A stretch of 44,371 nucleotides of DNA from Escherichia phage 6949. Both the position numbers and the translations under genes were made by a program. Shown here piece after piece: positions 23,106-28,442 of the stretch. The stretch is from sequence record OL362273.1. The stretch is one strand, 5' to 3'. The notes beneath the pieces are model-generated. The model was not told the DNA's origin, did no database searches, and was given only the letters and a program-made list of their open reading frames with translations. How positions within the stretch are numbered: position 1 is the stretch's first letter; every line of letters begins with the position of its first letter.

Positions 23106-23128
23106 ATTTACTGGACACTATAGAAGAG
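23106..23128 (+). promoter_or_regulatory. SP6-type phage promoter
   Basis: ATTTACTGGACACTATA followed by GAAGAG; the predicted +1 G is at 23123. Confidence 0.85.
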
Positions 23129-23178: not shown

Positions 23179-23553
23179 ATGTTCAAGATTGAAACTATCG
23201 TAAACCGTGTTGTTAAAGGTGCTGCTCTGGTATCCGTTGAGTCTTTCATTATCGTCGATGAAGCTGATCAACTGGTAGCTGGTACTAAGGCTTATGATAC
23301 TCGTGAAGAAGCTCAGGCTAAGATTGACAGCATGGGTAACTTCGCTGCGGGTCTGGAGTTCGCTCGTGCTTGCTTCCCTGAGCAGGCTGACAAAGCTCAG
23401 ATTGGTAAGGCTAATATCGTAGCTGAATATCTGGATTGGATTGCTGCTGGTAAGCCGGTGAAAGAAGTTAAAGCTGCGGAAGAAGTTGAAGCTCCGGCAG
23501 TAGAAGAAGTAGCTGCACCGGAAGTTCCGGTAAGCGAAGAAGAAGAGTTTTAA
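23179..23553 (+). CDS. Acidic hypothetical protein (124 aa) in a stand-alone promoter-gene-terminator unit
   Basis: RBS AAGGAG precedes the ATG. The C-terminal tail is acidic and ends SEEEEF. A terminator follows directly. Confidence 0.6.
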   Translation: MFKIETIVNRVVKGAALVSVESFIIVDEADQLVAGTKAYDTREEAQAKIDSMGNFAAGLEFARACFPEQADKAQIGKANIVAEYLDWIAAGKPVKEVKAAEEVEAPAVEEVAAPEVPVSEEEEF

Positions 23554-23559
23554 TTGATG

Positions 23560-23592
23560 CCCTGTCTGCCTTAGTGTAGGCAGGGTCTTTTG
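23560..23592 (+). terminator. Intrinsic terminator
   Basis: The stem CCCUGUCUG / UAGGCAGGG (two G-U pairs) encloses an 8 nt loop and is followed by TCTTTTG. It is a homolog of the terminator after the capsid gene. Confidence 0.55.
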
Positions 23593-23617: not shown

Positions 23618-23908
23618 ATGCCGACTATTGAAGAACGTTTCCTGATTCACGTGAGCTTCTCATCCATACATCTTGGTTATCTTATCACTATTCTCTTAGG
23701 TGAAGAGATTTATCTGCATAACCACTTAATACCAGAGTATGTATGTCACCGAGATAAGATACACCCTGCTAATTGGGCGAAAGAGTGGCTGCGTGAACAT
23801 GTGCTGAAGGAGTGGCCTACATGCGACCAAACTTCGACTTCGGAGCTACAGTATCGGAAGACAATAACCTGTTGCTGTGGCCGACTGAAGGTAATCGAAT
23901 CGCTTTAA
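23618..23908 (+). CDS. Hypothetical ORF overlapping the exonuclease start (uncertain)
   Basis: RBS GGAG precedes ATG 23618. Its 3' end overlaps the exonuclease gene by about 88 nt in another frame, so it may be shorter than drawn or not expressed. Confidence 0.3.
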   Translation: MPTIEERFLIHVSFSSIHLGYLITILLGEEIYLHNHLIPEYVCHRDKIHPANWAKEWLREHVLKEWPTCDQTSTSELQYRKTITCCCGRLKVIESL

Positions 23909-24849
23909 TAGATGCTGATATGTTACCTTACATCGTCGGGTATACAATCAGTGACATGACTTATGTACGAGCCACAACTCGTGTTAAGTCAGGACAAGTC
24001 CTATCAATCAAAGATACCCCTGAGTGTAAGCAAGCGTGTGACCGTGTGAACTCCTTGCTTAACTCTTGGGTGTATGCAGCAGAGTGTGATGCTGCTAAGT
24101 TATTCATGACGAAATCAGAAGCTAACTTCCGAGTTCGCCTAGCCTTCACCAAACCTTATAAGGGTCAACGTAAGACCGAGAAGCCTCCGTTCTTCTATGA
24201 ATTGCGAGAGCATCTCTTAGAGGTTCATGGTGCAATATTGGCAGATGGAGAAGAGGCTGATGACCTCATGAGCATTGCACAATGGGACAGCCACCGCCGC
24301 TTCCAGCAAGATACAGGTAACGAGTTCCCTATCGGTAGTCCAGAGCATAAAGCATTCTCTGATACTTGCATCGTTTCCTTAGATAAGGATTTGATGATTG
24401 TTCCCGGTTGGCATCTTCAGCCGGGTCAAGAGAAGAAATGGGTAGAGCCTATGGGTTGGCTTGAGTTACGCCGTAAGGCTAATGGTCAGGTTAAAGACCT
24501 TAAAGGTGCTGGCCTCATGTTTCATTATGCACAGATGATTATCGGTGATGATATTGATAACTATGCTGGCATACCTGGACGTGGTGCTAAATACGCCTAT
24601 GATCTTCTCAAAGATTGTAAGACAGAGAAAGAGTTGTACATGGCAGTGCTTGGTGCTTACAAGGCTAAGTTCGGACATGGGCAAGTTAAGATTAAGAATT
24701 ACCGAGGTGGTTATCGTATCGGCAAGGCTTTTGACCTGATGCTCGAATGTGGTCGCCTAGCTCACATGGCAAGATTCAAAGGTGATATATGGCGAGCCGA
24801 TAAGAACCCAATCTTGTGGGGAGATGATGCGGAATGGTTAGCAAATTAA
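23821..24849 (+). CDS. 5'-3' exonuclease (T7 gp6-like, FEN family)
   Basis: The N-terminal acidic cluster IALIDADMLPY, plus EEADD, IVSLDKDL and GIPG motifs, are as in T7 gp6. ATG 23821 follows RBS AAGGAG; the track start is a GTG. Confidence 0.85.
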   Translation: MRPNFDFGATVSEDNNLLLWPTEGNRIALIDADMLPYIVGYTISDMTYVRATTRVKSGQVLSIKDTPECKQACDRVNSLLNSWVYAAECDAAKLFMTKSEANFRVRLAFTKPYKGQRKTEKPPFFYELREHLLEVHGAILADGEEADDLMSIAQWDSHRRFQQDTGNEFPIGSPEHKAFSDTCIVSLDKDLMIVPGWHLQPGQEKKWVEPMGWLELRRKANGQVKDLKGAGLMFHYAQMIIGDDIDNYAGIPGRGAKYAYDLLKDCKTEKELYMAVLGAYKAKFGHGQVKIKNYRGGYRIGKAFDLMLECGRLAHMARFKGDIWRADKNPILWGDDAEWLAN

Positions 24850-25244
24850 AATCATCGGAGGTAGCAGCTTATAAGAGGGAATTGCTAGAGAAGCAAGGAT
24901 GGAAGTGCCCCCTATGTGGCGGCAGTCTCAAGGCTGTTACTCCTATAAACCGTGTACTTGACCATGACCATGAGACAGGATTCTGCCGTGCTGTTGTATG
25001 CCGAGGCTGCAATGGTGCAGAAGGAAAGATTAAGGGTGTTATCTCTGGTTATGGTAAGGCTGGTAACAACCGTTACTTCCAGCTTCAATGGTTAGAGCGA
25101 CTATATGAATACTGGAAGTTACATAGTACGCCTCAGACAGATAAGTTATATCACAAACACCAAACGGAGGCAGAGAAGCGCGAGGCTAAGAACCGTAAGG
25201 CACGCCTTGCTTATGCAAGAAAGAAGGAGGTTAAAGTTGGGTAA
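24834..25244 (+). CDS. Endonuclease VII-like Holliday junction resolvase
   Basis: The motif CPLCGG...LDHDHETG...RAVVCRGCNGAEG matches the T4 endonuclease VII zinc/HNH-like core (C.IC...LDHDHE...RGLLC.LCN.AEG). Confidence 0.8.
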   Translation: MVSKLKSSEVAAYKRELLEKQGWKCPLCGGSLKAVTPINRVLDHDHETGFCRAVVCRGCNGAEGKIKGVISGYGKAGNNRYFQLQWLERLYEYWKLHSTPQTDKLYHKHQTEAEKREAKNRKARLAYARKKEVKVG

Positions 25245-26244
25245 GCTTCGCAGCTTGTACAAAGACTCCGAGGTACTTGATGCAATCGAGCAAGCTACCG
25301 ACGAGAAAGGTAATGTTAATTACAATGAGATGGCACGTGTATTATCGTGTCACCCTGTGGGTAAGAAGATTACCCGCCAGTTGGCTCGATACTGGCATGG
25401 TCAATTCAAGAAGACCAAGAAGAATGGTGATTATTACCAGACCCTTCTGCAAGAAGATAAGCGTATCAAAGAAGAGCGTAAGCTCAGGACTCCTGACCGC
25501 TACGAGGATTTGGCTATTGTGCCATTGCCTGACTCGCCTCATCGAAGTGTACTGGTGATCCCTGATACTCATGCACCTTATGAGCACCCAGATACCCTAG
25601 AGTTCCTTGCAGCCGTGGCAGCACGTTACCGTCCAGACACAGTGGTACACCTAGGAGATGAGGCAGACAAACATGCCTTGTCATTCCACGATTCGGACCC
25701 AAATCTGGATAGTGCTGGAATGGAGTTAGAGAAGGCTCGTATCTTCATGCACAAATTGCACAAGATGTTCCCTGTGATGCGCCTATGTCACTCCAACCAC
25801 GGCTCTATGCACTTCCGTAAGGCAAGCGCCAAGGGTATTCCAGTGCAATATCTTCGCACCTACCGTGAAGTCTTCTTCCCAAATGGAGGTGGCGACCAGT
25901 GGGATTGGCAGCATACACATGTTCTTGAGTTGCCGAATGGCGAACAGGTGGCATTCAAGCATCAACCTGCTGGCTCTGTCCTAGCAGATGCAGCGCATGA
26001 GCGTATGAACCTTGTGTGTGGTCACTTGCACGGTAAGATGTCTGTGGAGTACGCACGTAATACACATGAACAGTATTGGGCTGTGCAAGGTGGCTGCTTA
26101 ATTGATGAGTCATCCCGTGCATTTGCCTATGGGCGTGAGTCTAAATACAAGCCAGCATTAGGTTGTGTGGTTATTCTGGAGGGTGTACCTCATATTGTCC
26201 CGATGCAAACCAATAGCGACAACCGTTGGATTGGCAAGATTTAG
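25237..26244 (+). CDS. Calcineurin-like metallophosphoesterase
   Basis: The ordered motifs are PDTH (DxH), HLGDEAD (GDxxD), SNHG (GNH-like) and GHLHG (GHxH). I prefer the TTG start at 25237 because it follows RBS AAGGAGGT; the longer track ORF from 25105 overlaps the endonuclease VII gene. Confidence 0.7.
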   Translation: MGKLRSLYKDSEVLDAIEQATDEKGNVNYNEMARVLSCHPVGKKITRQLARYWHGQFKKTKKNGDYYQTLLQEDKRIKEERKLRTPDRYEDLAIVPLPDSPHRSVLVIPDTHAPYEHPDTLEFLAAVAARYRPDTVVHLGDEADKHALSFHDSDPNLDSAGMELEKARIFMHKLHKMFPVMRLCHSNHGSMHFRKASAKGIPVQYLRTYREVFFPNGGGDQWDWQHTHVLELPNGEQVAFKHQPAGSVLADAAHERMNLVCGHLHGKMSVEYARNTHEQYWAVQGGCLIDESSRAFAYGRESKYKPALGCVVILEGVPHIVPMQTNSDNRWIGKI

Positions 26245-26261
26245 TTGACACTATAGAACAA
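26239..26261 (+). promoter_or_regulatory. SP6-type phage promoter
   Basis: ATTTAGTTGACACTATA followed by GAACAA, which is very close to the canonical SP6 promoter. Confidence 0.8.
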
Positions 26262-26344: not shown

Positions 26345-26848
26345 ATGTCACACTATGAATGTAAGAAGTGTCATAAGCGTTATGATTACTGTACTTGTGG
26401 TCAAGAGAAAACATCTTTTAAAGTTGGAGACAAGGTATTTCGTAATGAAAAAGATTCTATTCCTTGGAATCAATTCTGCAAAGAAGCTGGTATTGACCCT
26501 GATAGCCCTGTAACCATAGATGATATTGATGGCATTAACTTGTGCTTTCGTGAGGTGAGGGGTACAGGTTGGGATTCCAAAAAATTCAAACTTGCATCTG
26601 ATAAGTTAGACAACAATATGGTAACTCAGCCTAAGCACTACGAGTTCTTTGATGGTGTAGAGGCAATCACTATCATTGCCCGCAGTATGACTGAAAAGCA
26701 ATTCGCTGGGTACTGCATGGGTAATACCCTTAAGTATCGCCTGCGTGCAGGTAAGAAGTTCAATACTGAAGAAGACTTGAAGAAGGCAGACTATTATAAA
26801 GAGTTATTCCAGAAGCATCGTCACGAATGTATTGATGAGGATATTTAA
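26345..26848 (+). CDS. Hypothetical protein with N-terminal Cys cluster and a conserved phage domain of unknown function
   Basis: ATG 26345 follows RBS GGAGGA; the track start is a GTG. The N-terminus has CKKCHKRYDYCTC, and the C-terminal block reads PKHYEFFDGVEAITII....F..YCMGNTLKYRLRAGKK. Confidence 0.6.
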   Translation: MSHYECKKCHKRYDYCTCGQEKTSFKVGDKVFRNEKDSIPWNQFCKEAGIDPDSPVTIDDIDGINLCFREVRGTGWDSKKFKLASDKLDNNMVTQPKHYEFFDGVEAITIIARSMTEKQFAGYCMGNTLKYRLRAGKKFNTEEDLKKADYYKELFQKHRHECIDEDI

Positions 26849-26849
26849 T

Positions 26850-27023
26850 ATGGAAGGTAAACTGTATAGAGGGTACTTCGGTAACTTATATAAAGTAAGC
26901 TCTCGCGGTTTTGTATTGACCTCTGATGATGAAGGTGCAATGTGGCACCTAAGTGCATATGGTTCTAACTTAGCACACTTTAAAGAGGCAATAGTCAAAG
27001 GTGTGATGAAGGAGGTGAAATGA
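26850..27023 (+). CDS. Small hypothetical protein (57 aa)
   Basis: ATG 26850 is coupled to the upstream stop and is in frame within track ORF 26832-27023. Confidence 0.45.
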   Translation: MEGKLYRGYFGNLYKVSSRGFVLTSDDEGAMWHLSAYGSNLAHFKEAIVKGVMKEVK

Positions 27024-27967
27024 ACATCTTCCAATTCCTAGGTCTTCCAGAAGACCACCGCAATCATCCATTCATGCTGGTGAAGCATCGCGGTGAAGTT
27101 CCTGAGAAGAAATTAACTTTTCCATGTTATGCACAGGTGAAACGAGATGGAATATTCAGTGCTGTTGTGGTGCGTAATGATGGTGTTGTTGCCATCTTTG
27201 GTCGTACTGGTAAGAAGCTCGCAAATGTTGAAGCCTTGGAAAAGACATTTAGTGTATTTCCTGTCGGGTTGTATCTTGGTGAGTTGCAATCTATGGCTGT
27301 TGATGTTTATCTTGAAGCTCTGTCAGGAGTGGTAAACCCTAATCGTACAGAGCCACTTGATTTCATAGGGCAGCAGATTAAAGACAACCTATATATCGAC
27401 TTCTTCGATATGTTAACCATTAAGGCATTCCATGATGGATTCACTGATGTTTCTTATCTCAAACGTTACGATGCTTTACATCGTCGCATCGGCACTCATC
27501 TTAGCGGGTACAACGCTATTCTTCCTATTACTCCTTGCCATAATGAGCGAGAGGTTGAAGCGTTTGCTCAAGAGCAAATAGATGCAGGCAGAGAAGGTGC
27601 GGTATTTAAACTTGACGTGGAGTACGAAAGTGGGCACAAGGGCTATCGTCAAACGAAGATTGTTCGTATGGTATCTTATGACCTCACCTGCATTGGGTGG
27701 GAGGAAGGAAAAGGTAAGTATAAAGGTAAAGTAGCTAATTTAATCTTTAAATGGAAAGGTGGTAAGTCCGTTAAGGCTATGCTGGGGCGTGGCTGGTCAC
27801 ATGAGGATGCAGCACAGATGTATCACGATATTAAGCACGGTGGCGAACTAAACGTCATTGGGAAAATCTTCGCTGTTAAGGCGTTACAGGAATCTAGTAA
27901 GGGAGTCCTGAGACTCCCCAAGGTTTCTGAACTTAGGTTTGATAAGGAAGTCCCTGATGTCTTCTAA
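27020..27967 (+). CDS. ATP-dependent DNA ligase (T7 gp1.3-like)
   Basis: RBS AAGGAGGTG precedes the ATG. The adenylation motif I is present as KRDG (AQVKRDGIFSAV), together with EGAVFK. The size fits phage ligases. Confidence 0.9.
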   Translation: MNIFQFLGLPEDHRNHPFMLVKHRGEVPEKKLTFPCYAQVKRDGIFSAVVVRNDGVVAIFGRTGKKLANVEALEKTFSVFPVGLYLGELQSMAVDVYLEALSGVVNPNRTEPLDFIGQQIKDNLYIDFFDMLTIKAFHDGFTDVSYLKRYDALHRRIGTHLSGYNAILPITPCHNEREVEAFAQEQIDAGREGAVFKLDVEYESGHKGYRQTKIVRMVSYDLTCIGWEEGKGKYKGKVANLIFKWKGGKSVKAMLGRGWSHEDAAQMYHDIKHGGELNVIGKIFAVKALQESSKGVLRLPKVSELRFDKEVPDVF

Positions 27968-28442
27968 TCCAAATTATCGAAAACCACCTCGTACACCGCC
28001 AAGACCACTTGCCTACTGTCCTTTTACTGGAAAGCTTTTCCGTAAGTTCAAAGATGGCTGGAGAGAAACAGGACTTAGCAGAAAGAGTGATGGATATTTA
28101 CAGTATAAAGTCGATGGTAAGACTGTAAGTGTTCATGTTTTAGCAATGAATATGATGGGTTATGACACTACCGGCTTTACAGTAGATCACATAAATCATA
28201 TACGCTGGGATAATAGGTTTATTAATCTACGTCTACTATCTCATAAAGATAATTGTTTAAATAGAGAGGCGATACATACAAGTAAGCTGCCGAGTGGTAA
28301 CTACAGAGCGCGATGTGGAAATGTTCATCTTGGCGTATTTGAGGATAAGTTACTTGCTCGTGGTGCTATCCTATGGTATCGCCATAGGAGATTTAATAAT
28401 GTTAAATTCAATGAAGGCAACGCGTGCCGTAGAAGTAGCTGA
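27957..28442 (+). CDS. HNH homing endonuclease
   Basis: The motif SVHVLAMNMMGYDTTGFTVDHINHIRWDNRFINLRLLSHKDN is an HNH signature. The ORF overlaps both neighbours, as a compact insertion would. Confidence 0.8.
   Translation: MSSNPNYRKPPRTPPRPLAYCPFTGKLFRKFKDGWRETGLSRKSDGYLQYKVDGKTVSVHVLAMNMMGYDTTGFTVDHINHIRWDNRFINLRLLSHKDNCLNREAIHTSKLPSGNYRARCGNVHLGVFEDKLLARGAILWYRHRRFNNVKFNEGNACRRSS

Follow-up and report, generated by a model that had tools for sequence, protein, structure and literature searches.

Context and family analysis of a metallophosphoesterase with a predicted helix-turn-helix-type head in Escherichia phage 6949

The genome of Escherichia phage 6949 (sequence record OL362273.1; the whole stretch analyzed, 44,371 nucleotides long, is called the window here) contains a plus-strand gene at 25237-26244 encoding a 335-residue protein, which a preliminary description made from the letters alone had named a calcineurin-like metallophosphoesterase with an N-terminal extension of about 100 residues. 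We assign the catalytic domain of this protein to PHROG 221, a family that includes gp47 of phage Bxb1 and gp54 of phage D29, and the extension is predicted to be a helix-turn-helix (HTH)-type module. An enzyme directed at nucleic acids fits the data best, because of the kinship within PHROG 221 (gp47, gp54, and gp48 of phage A10ZJ24), the HTH-like head, and the coupling of the gene to two nuclease genes. By analogy with these relatives, we tentatively propose, at a likelihood slightly short of even, that the protein is a DNA-tethered, metal-dependent nuclease acting in DNA replication, recombination, or host-DNA breakdown.

The gene and its catalytic domain

The coding sequence and the elements of the catalytic domain are as follows; the five motifs were identified from sequence and alignment.

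25237..26244, plus strand: phosphoesterase coding sequence, 335 codons and a TAG stop; ortholog of K1-5 gene 22 (YP_654123); PHROG 221
25225..25230, plus strand: Shine-Dalgarno sequence AGGAGG, read from the sequence, 6 nt before the TTG start (25237-25239)
25537..26241, plus strand: catalytic metallophosphoesterase domain, residues 101-335; a unit of ~235 residues also found alone in many phages
25564..25572, plus strand: motif I, D110-T-H112
25654..25668, plus strand: motif II, G140-D141-E-A-D144
25672..25728, plus strand: conserved, family-specific loop H146..L164, H.LSFHDSDPNLDSAG.EL, with H146 and H151 invariant
25792..25803, plus strand: motif III, S186-N187-H188-G189
25960..25962, plus strand: motif IV, H242
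26020..26034, plus strand: motif V, G262-H263-L-H265-G266

The stop-to-stop frame enclosing the gene spans 25105..26244 on the plus strand, and the start codon lies well inside it. The TTG start assumed at the outset was corroborated by the spacing of the AGGAGG sequence, by the K1-5 coding sequence YP_654123, which has identical limits and is annotated 'metallo-phosphoesterase', by an ATG at the homologous position in the ortholog of Pseudomonas phage Nerthus, and by a TTG start in the ortholog of phage KpV74. This start position is common to all 335-residue homologs, and in the window the start region overlaps the stop codon of the upstream endonuclease VII gene (25242-25244) by 8 nt. Compared with the K1-5 gene, 28 codons differ, of which 26 are synonymous and 2 non-synonymous; the gene is real and under strong purifying selection.

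When the 1,008-base gene was used as a query, it was 96-98% identical to sequences of Escherichia phages AAPEc6, K1-5, LL11, and VEc3 and of many unannotated Vectrevirus genomes. Because of this identity and the presence of ten SP6-type promoters, the window is recognized as a circularly permuted K1-5-like Vectrevirus genome (Autographiviridae, Molineuxvirinae), that is, a lytic coliphage. The gene itself is thus already known: it is publicly annotated in K1-5 and dozens of relatives, belongs to a catalogued family, and is ordinary in kind. Literature searches turned up no publication on gene 22 of K1-5 or SP6.

The motif order of the superfamily (D-x-H, G-D-x-x-D, G/S-N-H, H, G-H-x-H) is found in the window protein. 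The preliminary description had listed DTH, GDEAD, SNHG, and GHLHG in this order, which was borne out, and H242 completes the set as motif IV. The metal-ligand residues of all five motifs were invariant in an alignment of 24 sequences with identity down to 49%. By superfamily inference, D110 and H112 together with H265 would hold metal 1, D141 would bridge both metals, N187, H242, and H263 would hold metal 2, and H188 would be the catalytic histidine. Judged by its residues, the two-metal site is intact with every canonical ligand present, and the protein looks like an active enzyme. The loop H146..L164, which was modelled with low confidence (predicted local distance difference test, pLDDT, below 50 at residues 145-149; block means of 54-57 for residues 141-160), may be a substrate-binding lid.

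Profile comparison placed the catalytic domain (residues ~101-335) in PHROG 221 together with Bxb1 gp47 and D29 gp54. The window protein matched phrog_221 with an E value of 4.6e-105 over profile positions 16-358 of 367, and the same profile was matched by Bxb1 gp47 (4.5e-116), D29 gp54 (2.6e-113), and gp60 of Gordonia phage JSwag (1.4e-112), as well as by the KP34-like KpV74 protein and stand-alone metagenomic members. In hhalign comparisons, the profile of 24 sequences aligned with JSwag gp60 at a probability of 95.8% (E 6.6e-9, 203 columns) and with Bxb1 gp47 at 88.8% (E 2.5e-6), and tblastn with the catalytic domain alone reached Gordonia phages. The Pfam Metallophos profile (PF00149) gave a borderline pass, with 22.0 bits against a cut-off of 21.5 and a match limited to residues 105-213. 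An AlphaFold2 model built from the alignment (pLDDT 84, predicted template modelling score 0.81) had a metallophosphoesterase fold, and Foldseek matched it at a probability of 1.00, with template modelling (TM) scores of about 0.5, to LpxH, Vps29, YmdB, SapH, Mre11, YfcE, and Dbr1. Taken together, the invariant motifs, the Pfam and PHROG matches, and the fold model uphold the initial identification as a calcineurin-like metallophosphoesterase. Of the profile and structure classification suggested with it, the profile part gave PHROG 221, whereas structure gave no sub-family: as modelled, the metallophosphoesterase fold is certain, and the sub-family is not readable from it. No relatives in the PDB were detected by sequence or profile search.

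Several other families were considered and rejected. The T5 A1 family (phrog_1745) gave an hhalign probability of 0.4%, and T5 A1 itself matches phrog_1745 only; the D29 gp66 family (phrog_547) gave 0.8%, and gp66 matches phrog_547, not phrog_221. D29 gp66, a 2',3'-cyclic nucleotide phosphodiesterase, and lambda phosphatase are likewise phage-encoded and of the same superfamily, but they belong to different families. PdeM (TIGR04123) scored 19.3 bits, far short of its cut-off of 150, and matched residues 114-146 only. Membership in the YfcE/MJ0936 phosphodiesterases (TIGR00040, PF12850) was dismissed on profile scores under the curated cut-offs (11.1 bits against 56 for YfcE, TIGR00040), and YfcE, MJ0936, and LpxH reach TM-scores of only ~0.5 to the window protein; in addition, a lipid A pathway enzyme such as LpxH would be out of place among phage replication genes of one operon. 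The PPP phosphatase signatures GDxHG, GDxVDRG, and GNHE are replaced by PDTHA, GDEADKH, and SNHG. A nuclease of the Mre11/SbcD type, one of the candidates put forward at the outset, was not supported, as membership in that family is defined by a profile match, a capping domain, and a Rad50/SbcC partner. The window protein has neither the family profile match nor the capping or OB domain of Mre11/SbcD and archaeal PolD DP1, the K1-5 region inspected has no annotated partner of the Rad50/SbcC type, and the scores to Mre11/SbcD and DP1 were no better than those to non-nuclease metallophosphoesterases. Among defence-related models, PADLOC gave nothing at E <= 0.1 for the window protein, the homolog P0143, or Bxb1 gp47, and the window protein matched none of the known anti-CBASS or anti-Pycsar enzymes.

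The N-terminal head

Two segments precede the catalytic domain.

25258..25407, plus strand: predicted three-helix HTH-like domain, residues ~8-57, with helices 10-20, 29-37, and 47-57
25408..25536, plus strand: conserved basic linker, residues 58-100, KKNGe.Y.TL..ANR.LK..R.LR.P, with a helix at 71-80

The extension of about 100 residues was recovered as first described. Its characterization as basic and devoid of recognizable motifs held in part: the first 100 residues are mildly basic (isoelectric point 9.2; 20 K+R against 16 D+E) and had no Pfam match, HTH families included, but they contain a conserved, confidently folded three-helix domain. The N-terminal region was modelled with a pLDDT of 83, and the three head helices recurred in both models with a pLDDT of about 90. 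The third helix carries the invariant residues L49, Y52, W53, and Q56 in the 24-sequence alignment, and L36 is invariant too. The head is conserved into KP34-like phages, where the segment VSRQLVRYW...ANR.L.EARKL is found, and it was present in all 32 Autographiviridae-type loci among the IMG/VR loci surveyed below. Because of these conserved positions and this presence across the Autographiviridae-type loci, the extension is not a start-codon artefact.

Many relatives carry an obvious HTH N-terminal to the same catalytic domain, and in two of them it is significant by Pfam (P0150, HTH_23, 33.7 bits; P0185, HTH_24, 27.4 bits). When the K1-5-type head was aligned with the classical HTH heads of such relatives by hhalign, the helices fell in the expected register with weak statistics (P 0.0067, probability 5.7%). 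Additionally, the N-terminal domain resembles DNA-binding domains of transcription factors and terminases. The head is therefore predicted, at the level of the model, to be a Myb/homeodomain-like three-helix module of HTH type; fold and architecture suggest that it is probably a diverged HTH with a long turn that binds DNA.

Used as a query, residues 1-100 retrieved three short or split proteins only. In Klebsiella phage IME184, the ortholog is annotated as two proteins of 106 and 229 residues (P0390 and P0046), cut where the linker meets the catalytic domain; a frameshift or a sequencing error may account for this, or the split may be natural. Literature searches for HTH-metallophosphoesterase fusions gave nothing.

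Gene neighbourhood, distribution, and inteins

The following features surround the gene in the window.

23106..23125, plus strand: SP6-type promoter, the nearest upstream of the unit of exonuclease, endonuclease VII, and phosphoesterase genes
23821..24849, plus strand: 5'-3' exonuclease gene (T7 gp6-like), overlapping the endonuclease VII start by 16 nt
24834..25244, plus strand: endonuclease VII gene (phrog_423, E 2e-47), its last 8 nt overlapping the phosphoesterase start
26239..26258, plus strand: SP6-type promoter overlapping the phosphoesterase stop codon and starting the next transcription unit
26345..26848, plus strand: T7 gp1.7-like nucleotide kinase gene (DUF3310, 85 bits), the downstream neighbour
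27020-27967: ATP-dependent DNA ligase gene, 0.8 kb downstream of the phosphoesterase
2375, 4039, 10277, 16556, 17247, 21497, 21960, 23106, 26239, and 31882, plus strand: positions of the ten SP6-type promoters

The phosphoesterase is translationally coupled to the exonuclease and endonuclease VII, and the three genes are co-transcribed, lying between the promoters at 23106 and 26239. The product of the exonuclease gene had a sub-threshold Pfam match to the 5'-3' exonuclease SAM-fold (24 bits against a cut-off of 40). All ten SP6-type promoters in the window (ATTTAnnnGACACTATAGAA) are on the plus strand, against a chance expectation of 0.01, and the site at 26239-26258 is the sole perfect match to the query consensus. 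A strong terminator-like hairpin of 11 pairs followed by a T-run lies at 23559..23586 on the plus strand, just past a small gene at 23179..23553; it separates the promoter at 23106 from the three genes and may attenuate transcription into them.

Downstream, the product of the gp1.7-like gene is 64% identical to residues 122-194 of gp1.7 and has a cysteine-rich N-terminus (CKKC...CTC). The end of the ligase gene is overlapped by an open reading frame of 167 codons (27939..28442, plus strand) with an HNH_3 homing-endonuclease domain (35.4 bits). The 475 bases past the ligase stop were found in only 3 of the searched phage records (two of Vectrevirus LI10P3, and EEc2), compared with 94 matching the phosphoesterase gene, and this reading frame looks like a sporadic mobile insertion. 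An endonuclease I of the T7 gp3 type was not found in the window (best tblastn E 2.0); consequently, the activity degrading host DNA is not otherwise accounted for there.

By tblastn, the gene family was present in 669 of 50,697 phage records, and a profile search yielded about 3,100 family clusters at 50% identity. The family occurs in many therapeutic-candidate podophages of Klebsiella, E. coli, Salmonella, and Proteus. Among the best 150 representatives of these clusters, about half were stand-alone proteins of 230-245 residues, a minority had the K1-5-type head, and many had another N-terminal extension with a plain HTH motif.

The genomic context was surveyed in 80 IMG/VR loci, comprising 32 of Autographiviridae type and 48 of a stand-alone marine type. 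An exonuclease and endonuclease VII lay within 3.5 kb of the phosphoesterase in every Autographiviridae-type locus (32/32), with endonuclease VII directly upstream in 24; in the 8 KP34-like loci, DNA polymerase was directly upstream instead. Endonuclease VII was also near the phosphoesterase in Bxb1, D29, JSwag, and one 56-kb metagenomic phage. A DUF3310 gene adjoins the phrog_221 phosphoesterase in JSwag (L008, 5567-6001) and in the marine loci L043, L045, and L080. The stand-alone marine form has 232-251 residues. Its gene comes immediately after that of an endolysin of the lysozyme or M15 peptidase type and runs towards oppositely oriented genes for a YqaJ-like exonuclease and a RecT/Erf-like protein ~2-2.5 kb away (assigned by eye), a setting unlike that of the Autographiviridae and actinophage members.

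Five homologs (P0121, P0161, P0265, P0269, and P0132) are 470-635 residues long and contain intein-like inserts inside catalytic motifs. The insert lies after GDE of motif II in P0121 (GDE|C...GN|CD), after the H of motif I in P0161 (PDLH|C...), and near motif III in P0265, and that of P0161 has a LAGLIDADG_3 domain above the Pfam threshold (30 bits). There are thus three independent intein insertion sites in one small enzyme. Inteins reside mostly in enzymes of DNA metabolism, which speaks for such a role here.

Proposed function and alternative explanations

Experimental work on the family concerns actinophages. In Bxb1, gp47 serves the serine integrase as its recombination directionality factor (PMC1470463); it is also needed for phage DNA replication and showed a limited Mn2+/Mg2+-dependent 3' exonuclease activity, and its predicted structure matches Mre11, DP1, and LpxH (PMC11795197). 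The group of Bxb1 gp47, D29 gp54, L5 gp54, and JSwag gp60 shares phrog_221 with the window protein and aligns over the whole catalytic domain, but lacks its N-terminal extension, and the directionality-factor role of gp47 has no obvious counterpart in a lytic K1-5-like phage. In the Bxb1 RefSeq record (L007, NC_002656, 36020-36787 and 35875-36015), the label 'recombination directionality factor RDF' is attached to gp46 and 'metallo-phosphoesterase' to gp47; the former label appears to be misplaced, as the literature has gp47 itself as the directionality factor.

Within PHROG 221, the experimental precedent that bears most directly on a nuclease role, by analogy, is gp48 of A10ZJ24, a cluster A ortholog of gp47 whose membership in the family is inferred from the alignment with Bxb1 in the original paper (PMC12287305). 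This phosphodiesterase is needed for killing M. tuberculosis; in vitro it breaks down linear, plasmid, and genomic DNA, and in vivo it degrades the DNA of the host (PMC12287305). The residues mutated in it, D10, D41, and H175, correspond to those of motifs I, II, and V in gp47. It differs from the window protein in lacking the HTH-like head and in its host and lifestyle. T5 A1, a predicted metallophosphatase reported to be necessary and sufficient for digestion of the host chromosome, is a functional analogy only: it is phage-encoded and of the same superfamily, but it is a pre-early gene product of 556 residues in phrog_1745. T4 gp46/47 is a further phage nuclease precedent. Homologs of A1 occur in some T7-like podophages, and an A1-type metallophosphatase with 37-38% identity was found in the early region of Agrobacterium/Rhizobium T7-like podophages (H121 and H122; phage Palo), so different podophage lineages carry different metallophosphoesterase families.

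If the window protein is a DNA-tethered nuclease, its N-terminal module would tether the enzyme to DNA, and the catalytic domain would hydrolyze DNA phosphodiester bonds in a Mn2+/Mg2+-dependent manner, as an exonuclease, an endonuclease, or both. Its synthesis would coincide with that of the 5'-3' exonuclease and endonuclease VII in the DNA-metabolism phase of infection. Working with these two enzymes, it might process replication and recombination intermediates, break down the host chromosome, or do both; loss of the host chromosome would supply nucleotides and silence host genes, defence genes included.

Several observations weigh against this proposal. The experimental data come solely from distant actinophage members and are conflicting: the exonuclease activity of gp47 was weak and contamination could not be excluded by its authors (PMC11795197), and gp47 is stated to have no phosphoesterase activity in the A10ZJ24 paper (PMC12287305). 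The actinophage relatives share only ~22% identity with the window protein, and their motif I is D-T-Q rather than D-T-H. The best Foldseek match is LpxH, and in the fold comparison the small-molecule phosphodiesterases YfcE and MJ0936 score level with DP1, so that nucleases are not singled out. In the 48 stand-alone marine-type loci (L043-L090), the gene follows the endolysin gene and not replication genes, and in one prophage (L005, an ENA contig) it is found at the edge, with the integrase as its neighbour. Moreover, genes for an exonuclease, endonuclease VII, and an HNH protein are already present in the phage.

The accessory positions of the stand-alone homologs, after the endolysin or beside the integrase, also speak for a phosphoesterase of nucleotides or other small molecules, such as dNMP/dNDP (deoxynucleoside mono- or diphosphates), dinucleoside polyphosphates, or cyclic and other immune-signal nucleotides. 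Such an enzyme would shape the nucleotide pool with the gp1.7-like kinase, whose gene adjoins the phosphoesterase in the window, in JSwag, and in the three marine loci named above, or would destroy a defence signal or its precursor, for which T5 Dmp, a phage phosphatase opposing the kinase-triggered Kongming defence, is a precedent. We consider this explanation unlikely. The recurrent HTH-type fusions are hard to explain for a hydrolase of soluble metabolites, the characterized PHROG 221 members act on DNA, and a Kongming-type link through the neighbouring kinase was judged weak, as Kongming seems to be triggered by P-loop dNMP kinases (K15A mutant), not by kinases of the DUF3310 type. The defence-system searches gave no PADLOC, anti-CBASS, or anti-Pycsar match, and nothing links the protein to hydrolysis of cyclic-nucleotide defence signals, an activity that the preliminary description had listed. 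It had also named a 2',3'-cyclic phosphodiesterase; D29 gp66, which alone among phage metallophosphoesterases has been shown to cleave cyclic nucleotides, belongs to another family (phrog_547). A 2',3'-cyclic phosphodiesterase or 3'-phosphatase could alternatively prepare broken ends of DNA or RNA for sealing by the phage ligase, as the phosphoesterase domain of bacterial PnkP does. The ligase gene at 27020-27967, the kinase-annotated gene between it and the phosphoesterase, the weak NCBIfam hit to PdeM, an endonuclease associated with ligase, and the suitability of an HTH-type domain for a nucleic-acid substrate are in keeping with such end healing. We regard it as rather improbable, however, since the PdeM score is far under the cut-off, the neighbouring kinase is a nucleotide kinase of the gp1.7 type and not a polynucleotide kinase, T7 has ligase and gp1.7 as neighbours yet no phosphoesterase, and a ligase was not detected within 7 kb of the KP34-like gene, which adjoins DNA polymerase.

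Slightly less probable again is a mainly non-catalytic role, in which the protein would be an HTH-bearing regulator or a cofactor for another phage enzyme and the phosphoesterase fold would act as a scaffold or sensor. The directionality function of gp47 works by protein binding (PMC1470463, PMC11795197), the same protein is described as inactive on phosphoesters in one paper, and the head resembles domains of transcription factors and terminases, all of which would suit such a role. On the other hand, the seven metal ligands and the catalytic histidine are all invariant in the clade, which points to selection for catalysis, motif point mutants of the A10ZJ24 homolog lose biological function, and no serine-integrase or lysogeny genes are among the features annotated around the K1-5 ortholog. 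A protein serine/threonine or tyrosine phosphatase resembling lambda phosphatase and acting on host or phage proteins, another of the activities first suggested, is very improbable: the superfamily is shared and GenBank uses the name 'phosphatase 2a-like protein' in AAPEc6, Vibrio phage Vc1, and Aeromonas phage Tola, but the PPP signatures are absent, and neither the HTH fusions nor the nuclease operon fits.

A bolder form of the nuclease proposal is that the PHROG 221 enzyme is the missing host-chromosome-degrading nuclease of the Autographiviridae other than T7, taking the role of T7 gp3 or T5 A1; this would take in the SP6/K1-5-like and KP34-like phages, the Colwellvirinae, and others. We hold it to be doubtful. 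Were it correct, early destruction of host DNA would also shut off inducible defence genes, and the DNA-binding head may tell host from phage DNA.

Three points were not found stated in the searchable literature: the "phosphoesterase" of enterobacterial podophages groups with the directionality factor and replication protein of Bxb1, its extension is HTH-like and one of several HTH heads fused to the PHROG 221 catalytic unit, and inteins invade this family at catalytic motifs. The family is still labelled merely "phosphoesterase" or "hypothetical" in annotation. The family link to gp47 and gp48, the HTH-like head, and the coupling to nucleases provide a modest, testable hypothesis for its enterobacterial branch. 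A nuclease acting on host DNA, if true, would bear on host takeover, defence evasion, and the safety and efficacy of therapeutic phages. If the enzyme were indeed the missing nuclease, an abundant, intein-invaded family would be a general factor of counter-defence and nucleotide scavenging.

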